This document shows, one piece after another, positions 9,001 to 15,000 of a stretch of DNA of 15,302 nucleotides. Source of the stretch: a virus. Within the stretch, counting starts at the first letter, position 1; each line of letters starts with the position of its first letter. Made by a program: the position numbers. The stretch lies in the UHGV virus genome UHGV-1740366. The stretch is one strand, 5' to 3'.

Positions 9001-12000
9001 GTTTTTGAGCCACTTATAGACAGCTCTTTCGCTAACTCCACAAGCCTTCGCAACTTCAGGGATGCCGACACCTTTAATCGGCTCATCAAGATTTTGCATA
9101 GGGATATCCTTTTTCGTACTTTCAGTACGCATTATGATTGAACTGAAAGTTTTTGCAAGTGCTTTAGTATCGTACTCATGGTTCAGAATGAAAAAGTGCG
9201 CAAAGAATTCGCCCAGCGGCTAGCGCAAGCCTGTAAAGAAGCTGGTCTTGATGAACATGGTAGGGGAATGGCTATAGCCCGTGCCCTTTCTCTTTCGTCC
9301 AAAGGCGTTAGCAAATGGTTTAATGCTGAGTCTTTACCGCGTCAGGAAAAAATGAATGCGCTTGCGAAATTTCTAAACGTTGATGTTGTTTGGCTTCAGC
9401 ACGGCACTTCGTTAAATGGAGCGAATGATGAAGATACTCTTTCATTTGTTGGCAAATTAAAAAAAGGGTTAGTGCGCGTGGTTGGTGAGGCAATTCTTGG
9501 TGTTGATGGTGCCATCGAGATGACCGAAGAGCGCGATGGGTGGCTCAAAATTTATAGCGATGATCCAGATGCCTTTGGCCTTCGTGTGAAAGGAGACAGC
9601 ATGTGGCCCAGAATAAAATCAGGAGAATATGTACTCATTGAGCCTAACACCAAAGTATTCCCGGGTGATGAGGTGTTTGTCAGAACCGTTGAAGGACACA
9701 ACATGATTAAGGTTCTTGGCTATGACAGAGATGGAGAATACCAATTTACAAGCATCAACCAAGACCACAGGCCAATAACGTTGCCTTATCATCAAGTAGC
9801 AAAGGTGGAGTATGTGGCTGGTATTCTGAAGCAATCTCGCCATCTGGATGACATCGAGGCAAGGGAGTGGCTGAAAAGTTTGTGACTTCAAGTACGCGAC
9901 AAGCCCCGTCCTTCAGGGCGTGGAGGATGTCAAAATAACTTTAAATAACACACCACCAACATTTAACACATTGAATTAAAAAACCTACAATATTTGATGA
10001 GAGGCGTTATGGAACCGGTCAAAATTAAACCATCTGTGGATTATATTGAAACCTATGCGGACTTCGCTAGTTTTGCTCCACTACCGGGAGCGGAAAAAAA
10101 TCTCATTTGTATACATTTTATCGCAAACAAGTCAATACCTGCGGTACTATCCCAAAATGATATACCAGATCAACCAGGTAGAGCGAATATGCAGATAGGC
10201 TCTGTAAATGAACTCAATCAGCAATGCACTGTGATAATGCCAATGGCACAACTAAAGGCTCTTCAGGAGAATATAGTTCTTCTTTTCGAACAATTAGAGG
10301 CACAAAACTCTAATGGAGCGAAGTCGTAATGCAACAACCGGAAGAAGTAGGTGATTTAACTATTACTTACAAAACATCAAGTATTGTTAAACCACTGCAA
10401 GTTTCCCTGAATAACGTTAATACTCGCGATTTCATGATGTTCATGGAAACAGCAAAAGGTAATCTGTTTTCTACGCCTATTTCCTCTTATTCACCAAAAA
10501 ACATGGTGGATGATGCGACCAATTCCCAGCTAACTGCTACAATCGTAGATAAAGGAGGGGTTGCCGATTGTAAAGGACAATCTAATGTTATCCCACCGTA
10601 CGAGGAAACTCCTATACAGGGAACCGCAATGTCCGATTTGAGCAGAAACGAAATACAGGCACTTCTGAAGGCAAATAAAGCTGAAGTGGATGCAGTGGCC
10701 TCAAAAATGCAGGCTGATATGGCCAAATGGCGTGAACTAATGGCTTCAGATATAAAGGAGATGAAGCATTTAGTTGTTACTCAGCACGAACAAATCAACA
10801 GTCGTCTGGACATACAATCGAGTAGAATTGAGAGTGCCCTTGACTCCCAATCAAAAAAGATCGATGCAGCTCTTTCTGTTCAAGAGGCAAAGTTAGAAGG
10901 TAAGCTTAGTGATGTTAAGCTTGATATAATCAAATGGGCCCTTGGCTTGCCAGCATTAGCATTTGCTGTATATAAAATCTACGGATTGCTCTCTGGAGTC
11001 TCAACCCCCTAATACACACCCGGCCTCAGTGCCGGGTTTTCTTTGCCCAACGTTCGCCCACCTAAAAACACATAATCGATTGTATTTGTTGATGTAACTC
11101 GCTAAACCATGCAGTTCTGATCCCTGCCGCATAACCTTCATCAGCCACATTTTCAAAAATAAATTTCCTTATATATCAGAATCATACTTCGTAGAGTTAA
11201 TAAATCACCAAAATTCGTACCAATAGTTCTTGATAATATCGAACTATTGGTTCATTATTATCGTCATCAGCAGGACGCATTACTCACCATGGCGGTGAAT
11301 ATACAACGATTCAAGCAAGAATCTACGGCGCTGACAAAGCGCAATAACCAAAGTGAACTTTGGGGTGAATGCAGAAGCTAACCTTCTCGGCGGAGGCGCT
11401 TTGCAATGATTACGCGACCGGAGTTAGTCGCCCGGCTGTATTCACCGCCAAAGTTCATCAGGAGGTCTATATGACACGCAGAACTCAGTTCAAAGGCAAT
11501 TCACGTTCTCGTCGTCGTGAGCGTTTAAAGGCAAAGGCATTAGCTAACGGCGTGCTGGCCCGCGAAGAAGCAATAAGTTCAGAAGTATTACACCGCCCTA
11601 CTCTAAGCAGAGCGCAGATTCAGGCTAAAGGTACTCACGAAACGCCTGAGCGCATAGAAGACGCTAAGCCAATTAAGTTCATGGCACAGGGCGTGATCTG
11701 GCAACAGAAAGAATACAGACGCAATCTGGAGCGAGCGGCCATTGTGTTCGCGAATGAGTTTGGACATAAGCAACCAGAAACTGGTGTATGTCTTCCAAAC
11801 GTAGCTCTTTACGCGGCAGGCTACCGGAAATCAAAACAACTGACGGCAAGATGACTTGTGTTGGTCGCCAGAAAATGAAATTAGGCAGCAAACCACTTAT
11901 TTGAGAGGAATTAATATGTCATCAATCCGCTTAACTACGAGAATGAAAGAGGAAATCGCTCGTAACGCTTTAATTAAGTCCGGGGTGTTCACTGAACTTG

Positions 12001-15000
12001 AAGAAGTAACAAAGTTAAAGAACCAGCTTGCACTTGACGCCAGAGTTATTGCGTTTGGCGGTAAAAAGAAAACTGAGGAAGTGGATCAGTTATCATCCAA
12101 GTTGGTAGCTATAAGTGAAGAACTTGGAAAGATGGGATGTTCATTTTACTCATACGATGTTAGTTCTACTTCAATTTATCTGACTGTATCTGGCAGAAGG
12201 GTTGGATGGCATTCATATGGGGAAGACGGCAACGGCAAAGATATATTGCTCCCTACTCCGATCAAAGATAAATGCATGTTTGACGCAGAACACGAAATAA
12301 CAAAAAGGTTTGATGAAATCTGCGCATTGCAACAAAAACTTGAAGCCAAGAAAAAGGATATCGAATCAAATGTATGGGCTGCTTTGAAATCAGTCACAAC
12401 AGTTAAGCGACTTATTGAAGTTTGGCCTGAAAGCAAAGAATTGCTACCAAAAGAAGCAGATAAAGCAAGTACAGCACTTCCTGCTTTACGGGTAGAAGAT
12501 TTGAATAAGATGATTGGACTTCCTTCCGAGGCCGCATAATCGGCCTTTATTTTTGGCATAAACAACAGAATAAACACTGCACTGTGTATTCATTCCAACG
12601 AGTGAATACACGGAACAATGTCGCTCGTAACTAAACAGGAGCCGACTTGTTCTGATTATTGGAAATCTTCTTTGCCCTCCAGTGTGAGGGCCTTTTTATA
12701 TGCATACCAATAACGCTTCACTCGAGGCGTTTTTCGTTATGTATAAATAAGGAGCACACCATGCAATATGCCATTGCAGGGTGGCCTGTTGCTGGCTGCC
12801 CTTCCGAATCTTTACTTGAACGAATCACCCGTAAATTACGTGACGGATGGAAACGCCTTATCGACATACTTAATCAGCCAGGAGTCCCAAAGAATGGATA
12901 AAACACTTATGGCTATCCAGACTAAATTCACTATCGCCGCTTTTATTGGCGATGAAAAGATGTTTCGTGAGGCCGTCGAAGCCTACAGAAAATGGAGGTC
13001 AAAATGATTCCGGTAGAACTGGCGAAAACTCCAGAGTTAAGTCGATTAAAAAGAGAATATCACATTGCTGAGGCTCGTTACTGGCGTAAAGCGGGAGATA
13101 AATCAAAGAAACAACTTTGCTTATGGCAGGCACAAAGAGAGCGCATGAATGAGCGTGAGTTTCTTTCCTCCCCATCCGAATTACCATTCTGAGGCAAATT
13201 ATGGGAACTGCGACATTAATACTCGGTGAATCTGGCACCGGAAAATCAACCAGCATGAGAAATATCAATCCAGAGGAAGCAATACTTATAAAACCAATAG
13301 GCAAGCCGCTTCCATTTAAATCAAAAGACTGGCTGGCATGGGATGCCAGAGCAAAAAAAGGAACCGTAGTTACCACTGACAAATGGGACGTAATAGTTGC
13401 CGTAATTAAGCGTGCTCACGAATACGGGAAAAGAATCGTTATTGTTGATGACTTCCAGTATGTGATGAGCAATGAGTTTATGCGCCGCTCAGAAGAAAAA
13501 TCGTTTGATAAATTCACTGAGATAGGCCGCCACGCATGGGAGGTGATTAAGGCTGCACAGGATGCACCTGATGACCTGAGAGTCTATTTTCTTGCACACA
13601 CCGAAGAAACCCCTATGGGGCGTGTGAAAATGAAGACTATCGGCAAAATGCTGGACGAGAAAATCACTGTCGAAGGCATGTTTACTATAGTTCTTCGCAC
13701 CCTTACCCGCGATGACCAGTTCTTTTTCACCACGAAAAACAACGGTGCAGACACTGTAAAATCCCCAATGGGAATGTTTGATTCTAATGAGATTGATAAC
13801 GATCTCTCTTTCGTCGATGCCACTGTTTGTGATTACTACGGCATCAATAATGTTCATCAAATTAAGGAAAACGCCGCATGAGCAACGTGATTTTTACTTA
13901 TAACGAAGAAGCAGCACTGACCGCAGGGCAAGGTGGTTTTATTAACGAAACTGGTGCTCATATCATTACCATTACTGAAGCAGAACTAAAGCAATCAGAA
14001 AAAGGAGCCAAATTTATTGAGTTTTCTGGCGAATCTGACGACGGACGTAAAATCCAATATCTTAGCGTCTGTGTTCAGAAAAATGACGGAACGGAAAACA
14101 AATTTGGCGCAAATGTCGTTCACGCCATGATGGGGTGTGCCGGGATTGGACAATTAACGCAACATATGGTTTCCGCCAGTAAATTTGTTGCTCCTGAGTT
14201 TCATGGAAAGAAAATCGGGTTAGTGCTCCAGAAAGTATTAACCACAAACAAAAAGACTGGCGCAGACAGCTACCAGATGGAAATACGCATCCCGTTTATT
14301 GCACAAACAGGTCAAACCCTTAAAGAAAAGGCGGAAGGCAAGCAACCAGAAACTATCGCCAACATGGTTGCCAGCCTCAAAGATAAAGACAATCGCTCTA
14401 AAAACGTAAGCCATAATCATGCAGATGATTATGGTTACAGCCAGAACGATTACCCTCCTTTCTGATTATTGAAAATAAGGCTCCCATTATGCCAGCGCCT
14501 CTGTATGGTGCGGATGACCCGCGCAATTGCTCCGGTAGCTCCAAGGCGGAGGTGCTGGAAAATATCAAAAACAATTTCGACGCGTTTCTTGCTCTGACAC
14601 CAGAAACAAAAGCAGAACGGATGTACCGACGCGATATACAACTCGCGCTAAAACAGGAGAAGGACCGAACAAACGAAACAGCAATGAGACCGTTGCGAAA
14701 AGCGACAATAGACAAATTCCCTGAATATATCGACCCGCGCCTGCGTAATTACCGCTCACGCTATGGCGCTATCAGTAATGACTGAGGAATTTACCATGAG
14801 AGGACTTGCATACAATCCCGGCATTCTTCCGGCAGAAATGATTATTCGCCAACGCGTAAAGCCAATGCCATCGAGAGAGGAATTGCTTAAGAGAAATTCT
14901 TTTCCATCAGTGAATCAAAACAAATATCTGAATGCGATGTTGCGGAGTGGGAAGAAATGAAACAAATGTCACTAATTGAGATGGATGGATTCCTGAAAGG

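Follow-up and report, generated by a model that had tools for sequence, protein, structure and literature searches.

The 15,302 nucleotides of the virus genome UHGV-1740366 analysed here (the window) span the immunity and early region of a lambdoid (Stx/933W-like) phage, in which the plus strand runs in the direction of pL. Just behind the antiterminator gene N this region holds a gene for a 207-aa protein (11916..12539, plus strand), which is securely identified as an accessory gene of the Nmad5 family and is already annotated as such. Taking all lines of analysis together, we read it as an Nmad5 accessory cassette that would be expressed immediate-early from pL and whose product may act as a non-enzymatic early binder in host takeover or counter-defence, and we give this joint reading an even chance of being right.

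The assignment to Nmad5 is the firmest part of the argument. The original prediction had found no recognisable motif in the protein, which is in fact a full-length member of PF18757 ('nucleotide modification associated domain 5') and of phrog_1965, and had already been named by RefSeq and the PGAP pipeline. Membership was judged by the Pfam gathering score over the whole domain: the protein scores 238.9 bits against a cut-off of 27 (E 7.5e-71), with residues 4-203 aligned to positions 1-206 of the 206-position profile, and it matches phrog_1965, whose function label is 'unknown', at E 1.3e-82. Close relatives are called 'Nmad5 family putative nucleotide modification protein' by NCBI and UniRef, and where the identical gene occurs in complete E. 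coli genomes, PGAP labels it with the Nmad5 name as well. The gene is thereby already known from a curated Pfam family, a RefSeq name and several published phages. Of 5,426 complete E. coli genomes, 201 have the full cassette and 1,333 have fragments of it; copies 96-99% identical occur in HK542, mEp235, Kapi1, PhiR12_1-5 and a set of Stx1a phages. An exhaustive search of the family yielded 854 clusters at 50% identity, nearly all of them stand-alone proteins of about 200 aa (lengths roughly 190-220) with only PF18757 recorded, and no domain fusion that might serve as a functional clue was found among the listed Nmad5 proteins. A contig scan with a narrow pattern returned only seven Enterobacterales loci and is uninformative on taxonomic breadth.

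Beyond the family itself the searches were unproductive. An hmmscan against Pfam at E up to 1, in which similarity to Ral or SieB was sought, returned only Nmad5 and four weak unrelated matches; NCBIfam held no match for the protein, and PADLOC, which covers defence and not anti-defence, gave 0 families at E up to 1. In the literature no mention of phrog_1965 or of the HK542 protein accession was found, and the supplements of an accessory-gene screen (PMC12373910) contain no trace of the 207-aa protein. Two apparent leads were discarded: the 'NMAD' domain of DefensePredictor is Nmad2, not Nmad5, and in a preprint on OLD the phage HK542 serves merely as a test phage.

The gene itself had been located and described correctly in the original prediction. 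It has an ATG start, 207 codons plus TAA, and a Shine-Dalgarno sequence GAGAGGA (11903..11909, plus strand) 6 nt ahead of the start. That it comes first behind N, in the interval before cIII, is likewise borne out, since the upstream gene (11471..11854, plus strand, 127 aa) matches PF25694 N_peptide (E 5.7e-16) and the next backbone gene downstream is cIII (12762-12901, plus strand, recognised from its translation) with its thermoregulator RNA (Lambda_thermo, Rfam RF01804, 88.5 bits; 12748-12806, plus strand). The predicted hairpin with the stop codon in its loop also exists: GAGGCCG/CATAAT/CGGCCTT forms a stem at 12528-12547 of seven pairs, five of them G-C, around the TAA at 12537-12539, and is followed by TATTTTT at 12548-12554, so that the intrinsic-terminator-like element occupies 12528..12554 on the plus strand. 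Taken by itself the hairpin is weak evidence, because its energy of about -12 kcal/mol corresponds to a z of -0.9 in its 71-nt context, not an exceptional fold, and because terminator-like sites are common in the scan (14 in 6.6 kb against 6.8 +/- 2.5 in shuffles). The intact 7-bp stem is kept in about 95 of 121 close copies, some 20% of the copies have a mismatch in it, and no compensatory change was seen among them; the copies are too similar for stem conservation alone to prove selection. The terminator is supported rather by the fact that the hairpin travels with the gene, the shortest shared DNA ending at 12569, just past the T-run. Nmad5 homologues in other genera have no such terminator, which makes the hairpin specific to the E. 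coli cassette.

How the cassette moves can be read from the limits of the DNA shared with the window, determined for 80 close copies from IMG/VR. Shared DNA starts at 11852 (the commonest limit), 11881, 11885, 11896 or 11443 and ends at 12569, 12584, 12697, 12701, 12741 or 12781, and these points define a smallest common unit of Shine-Dalgarno sequence, ORF (open reading frame) and terminator at 11896..12569 (plus strand), roughly 0.67 kb. At the usual left junction 52 nt remain from the 3' end of a lambda-type N (11853..11904, plus strand; they read MTCVGRQKMKLGSKPLI and a stop), directly behind the stop codon of the P22/933W-type N that belongs to this phage. In HK542, as in many other loci, a lambda-type N ends inside this very stretch, the upstream N ORFs ending in CVGRQKMKLGSKPLI, and this relic marks the recombination junction that moves the cassette between phages with different N alleles. 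The cassette's upstream partners comprise at least four N alleles and some small genes other than N, its downstream partners at least eight different genes. Its recombinase context, scored in 74 loci, includes Erf with Abc2 (32 loci), Sak4 with SSB and Abc2 (7) and Bet with Gam (9), and this co-occurrence with Gam or Abc2 weakens the idea that the protein is a RecBCD inhibitor replacing Gam or Abc. At 39-40% GC the cassette lies below N, which has 50%. Phages with the same N, phi24B and ST2-8624, hold in the slot instead an unrelated 156-aa gene (phrog_1636) and ea10/ssb; as a side observation, the phrog_1636 gene lies at 12933-13403 in our locus L166 (phi24B) and at 3615-4085 in L002, and in some loci it stands directly downstream of the Nmad5 cassette, which indicates that the slot can hold cassettes in series. 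On this picture the cassette recombines freely into the stretch that separates N from the first pL terminators in lambdoid phages.

A moron of the HK97/HK022 type is a gene flanked by its own promoter and terminator, and the 'moron-like' organisation proposed originally holds up in part. The gene separates genes that are neighbours in related phages, behaves like an accessory module that has been inserted and appears to bring its own terminator, but a consensus scan of the plus strand from 11259 to 11916 detected no sigma-70-like promoter of its own, and hence no promoter-like site between pL and the gene.

This arrangement bears directly on when the gene is read. The pL-like promoter, TTGATA-17-CATTAT (11230..11258, plus strand), has an equivalent in phi24B and is flanked by an operator-like inverted repeat, ACCAATAGTTC/GAACTATTGGT. 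Behind it the nutL boxB hairpin (GCGCTGACAAAGCGC; 11329..11343, plus strand) was read from the sequence at the place homologous to the annotated nutL of phi24B, and we take it to be of the P22/933W type. Up to the end of the gene the scan shows a single terminator-like site, a weak stem of 5 bp within N. The gene is then followed by three terminator-like hairpins, the cassette's own at 12528 and two of the backbone at 12674-12691 and 12712-12731 (plus strand), which are present with or without the cassette and have homologues in phi24B and HK542. Having no promoter of its own and lying upstream of the first pL terminators, the gene would be made together with N, as an immediate-early lytic product and not in the prophage. 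The position of the gene elsewhere supports immediate-early expression too: Klebsiella prophages that lack N have it as the first gene behind the repressor/pL region, and in temperate phages from Providencia and the environment it takes the first place there or nearly so. Judged from these predicted signals, the cassette is securely positioned for immediate-early lytic expression. It would be transcribed from pL before N antitermination is needed and would be silent in the repressed prophage, and polymerase modified by N would later pass the cassette hairpin and both backbone terminators to reach cIII, kil and the genes for recombination.

The same evidence speaks to a quite different role, that of a prophage-expressed moron which protects the lysogen by exclusion or defence in the manner of sieB or rex. 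The sieB/ral slot, the cassette's terminator and the patchy distribution among otherwise similar prophages would suit it. We nonetheless consider it very improbable, for a gene with no promoter-like site of its own would be repressed along with pL in a lysogen, the product has no membrane segment, is modelled as soluble and has no PADLOC match, homologues occur in obligately virulent phages, and the lysogen-expressed slot of this phage is the pair of genes downstream of cI (9994-11012), which has its own terminator. The original analogy with ral and sieB therefore stands as far as the shared variable slot is concerned, but a sieB-like exclusion function in the lysogen is unlikely in view of the promoter, the membrane segment and the virulent relatives.

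That the gene is real and under constraint follows from its alleles. The ratio of nonsynonymous to synonymous substitution rates (dN/dS) is 0.17 over 73 alleles and 0.10-0.26 in each of five segments, which indicates purifying selection throughout; no diversifying selection was found in the variable middle of the protein. It is dispensable all the same, as shown by the other cassettes that fill the slot in 933W/phi24B and by copies split by an insertion sequence (IS). Frameshifted and truncated copies exist, and about 48 genomes of Stx2a phages have an IS3-family element of 1,309 bp inserted in the gene at codon ~35 (orfA HTH_Tnp_1, orfB rve; 1195-2505 in LC616077.1, locus L178, corresponding to about 12019-12022 of the window), with a 4-bp overlap at the junction that suggests a target duplication.

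Structural modelling was the second arm of the check that the original prediction had called for. AlphaFold2, given an alignment of 85 sequences whose representatives are 26-58% identical to the query, returned a confident model with a predicted local distance difference test score (pLDDT) of 91.5 and a predicted template modelling score (pTM) of 0.83. Three N-terminal helices (residues 8-72) are followed by a small beta region (~86-125), a long helix (127-158) and two short helices (163-176) bearing W170-P171-E172; after a disordered linker (181-192) comes a terminal short helix (194-200), in a stretch that carries L196-N197 and G201-L-P203. Searches with the model found no structural relative outside the Nmad5 family, and a sequence-profile search of the PDB found nothing. 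The remote-homology and structure check as a whole thus identified the family but no characterised protein of similar sequence or fold, and on that account a Ral-like anti-restriction role is neither supported nor excluded.

Which kind of molecule this fold supports is suggested by its conserved residues. Columns invariant or nearly invariant in the 85-sequence alignment are all occupied as expected in the 207-aa protein: R5, A18, R43, G48-G49, G93, T162, L166, W170-P171-E172, P178, N197, G201 and P203. Conservation falls on Arg, Gly, Thr, Trp, Pro, Glu and Asn; the alignment shows neither a conserved catalytic set nor an Asp/His/Cys cluster. The isoelectric point (pI) is neutral at 6.8, and the family ranges from 5.0 to 9.8, values that rule out a DNA mimic. 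With this pattern and a neutral pI the protein resembles a binder more than it does an enzyme or a DNA mimic, and we infer that the Nmad5 protein is most likely a non-enzymatic early binder with a host or DNA-metabolism target. It would be a soluble alpha+beta protein with a fold unseen in solved structures, which may contact its partner through the invariant N-terminal Arg and Gly residues and a C-terminal element, TTxKKLxxWPExxELLP ... LPAxxVxDLNxxIGLP. The partner could be a host DNA-metabolism or immunity protein, or DNA itself, met at the very start of infection, and the role would be to help the phage genome establish (host takeover or counter-defence) rather than to carry out a step of nucleotide modification.

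The family name points elsewhere, to a true component of DNA or nucleotide modification, perhaps a specificity or scaffolding subunit working with an enzyme of host or phage, for instance the phage Dam (2943-3506), the sole methylase in the window, some 9 kb off in the pR/nin operon. The family was named for a neighbourhood with modification genes, and such neighbourhoods exist. In Yuavirus/M6-like phages the Nmad5 gene sits beside aGPT-Pplase1 in a thymidine hypermodification cassette (PMC9476957); in an N4-like (Pylas) phage it is flanked by thymidylate synthase and a PD-(D/E)XK nuclease, with primase, AAA_24 and SSB genes next in line; and in metagenomic phages it adjoins Thy1/thymidylate synthase, with a dUTPase near it on one contig. 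The genes of the M6 hypermodification pathway are gp51-55, however, and Nmad5 is not among them (PMC5889632). Across 20 family clusters (less than 70% identical), three ORFs to either side of the gene, no modification enzyme was found except one Thy1; the recurrent neighbours are repressors, N peptides, PD-(D/E)XK/DUF2800, Enc34 SSB and AAA_24, as well as Kil, ERF, DUF669 and PolA. The window agrees with this, its Nmad5 gene having N, cIII, kil, Sak4, SSB and Abc2 as neighbours, and no modification enzyme is adjacent here or in the other temperate phage contexts. Together with the missing catalytic signature and the stand-alone form of the protein, never fused to an enzyme, this makes a modification role improbable. 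The missing modification neighbourhood is a feature of context, and membership of Nmad5 by sequence stands; for temperate phages the family name looks misleading.

The neighbourhoods also speak for an accessory factor of phage recombination and replication, which would work with the downstream exonuclease, annealase and SSB, for example in loading them or in protecting DNA ends, and would leave host immunity alone. A recombination or exonuclease gene (Sak4/AAA_24, Erf, DUF3799, PD-(D/E)XK, DUF2800 or a Rv2179c-like exonuclease) follows on the same strand within about 3.3 kb in 15 of 24 clusters and sampled contigs. In six of the 24, drawn from the N4-like Pylas phage, Providencia prophages and metagenomic phages, it is the next gene or the next but one, and the stop and start codons often overlap; in the window itself Sak4 (13201-13881), SSB (13878-14465) and Abc2 lie downstream. 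Yet the cassette occurs regardless of recombinase type (Erf, Sak4 or Red), Klebsiella prophages carry the gene in a pL operon that has no recombination genes at all, and the Dhillonvirus gene stands alone on the opposite strand inside the structural module; in lambdoid phages the adjacency may merely reflect that all pL genes precede the recombination genes. We regard a recombination helper as rather unlikely. It is the main rival nevertheless, and both the modification role and the sieB-like role in the lysogen are less likely still.

Functional information on the family comes from the Dhillonvirus homologue. There an nmad5 substitution, K216E/K296E, allows escape from the Tmn defence, its reversion restores sensitivity to Tmn, and deletion of nmad5 confers no escape; phage lacking their own nmad5 are viable, and the gene could not be cloned, apparently for reasons of toxicity (PMC11846954). 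In our alignment to the 254-aa Dhillonvirus protein, and on the assumption that the published protein is collinear with it, K216 corresponds to R165 of the lambdoid protein, within TTxKKLxxWPE.

Several points weigh against the early-binder reading. The recurrence of recombination and exonuclease genes downstream, next or next but one in six of the 24 clusters and sampled contigs, favours the recombination helper. The motif is strongly conserved across very different hosts and selection is uniformly purifying (0.10-0.26), quite unlike a fast arms-race gene. The functional data concern only the Dhillonvirus homologue, and immediate-early expression is deduced entirely from consensus scans, so that Rho-dependent termination or an unrecognised promoter may alter the picture.

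A bolder version, that Nmad5 is a large (more than 850 clusters) and structurally novel class of immediate-early effectors whose conserved C-terminal peptide and helix bind a core host protein of DNA metabolism or immunity, is offered tentatively, as a doubtful but conceivable generalisation. On that version the family would be a new group of anti-defence or host-takeover proteins under a misleading 'nucleotide modification' label, and for proof of it the lambdoid cassette of HK542 and mEp235 would be the most accessible to genetics. Both phages infect K-12 and carry a copy 96% identical to that of the window, so that simple genetics could reveal the function of a widespread family.

The remainder of the window is that of a lambdoid early region. 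On the minus strand lies cro (8872-9132), followed by cI (9178-9885) and, in the rexA/rexB position, the gene pair at 9994-11012 with a strong terminator at 11018-11037. The pair encodes a 111-aa protein of no assigned family and a 227-aa protein (phrog_14825) with a coiled coil and a hydrophobic C-terminus; neither has a PADLOC match, and they may be an accessory or defence pair expressed in the lysogen. The intergenic RNA at 12570-12760, from the cassette towards cIII, is unusually structured (minimum free energy -71.3 kcal/mol, z -6.1); it includes a perfect 12-bp hairpin at 12584-12611 as well as the two backbone terminator-like hairpins, and runs into the cIII thermoregulator. After cIII comes kil, and between kil and the Sak4-type AAA_24 ATPase lies a 66-aa ORF (12992-13192) that has no Pfam family and matches phrog_1723, labelled 'recombinase' (E 2e-33); this small protein is a conserved companion of the recombination module. 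SSB is followed by Abc2 and then DUF2737. Elsewhere, a 203-aa ORF on the minus strand (4792-5403) combines HNH_3 and AP2 domains, a type typical of homing endonucleases, just downstream of a Toprim/DnaB-like primase-helicase gene (5486-7366).

Comparison with known systems places the gene between several better-known types. With lambda Ral, SieB and Ea10 it shares the chromosomal slot and the operon logic, a mosaic site for interchangeable cassettes; in sequence and fold the 207-aa protein is similar to none of them, it differs from SieB in having neither a promoter of its own nor a membrane segment, and lambda ral is presumably downstream of tL1, whereas the Nmad5 gene precedes the first terminator. 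T7 Ocr-type proteins resemble it in being dispensable and in the very early transcription predicted for it, but the 207-aa protein, at pI 6.8, is no acidic mimic, and no structural similarity to them was detected. Like the morons of HK97 and HK022 it is an extra gene of lower GC content set between genes adjacent in relatives, with a terminator that travels along, and unlike them it lacks a detected promoter and lies in sense orientation inside an early operon. Within the Nmad5 family it is a full-length, stand-alone protein of the usual length with all family-invariant residues and a phage or prophage context; what sets it and other temperate phages apart is that modification genes, the context that gave the family its name, are not nearby. 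Dhillonvirus nmad5 is longer (at least 254 aa), has a divergent N-terminal half and belongs to a virulent phage, on the opposite strand in the structural module. It too matches PF18757 (E 6.9e-60), is dispensable and is inserted in accessory style; its C-terminal half is 34% identical, including TTxKKLxxWPE, to which the escape substitution appears to map. The value of these comparisons is that they show an independent cassette in the N-early position, with a confident fold that has no solved relative, conserved residues unlike those of an enzyme and a homologue already tied genetically to Tmn escape.

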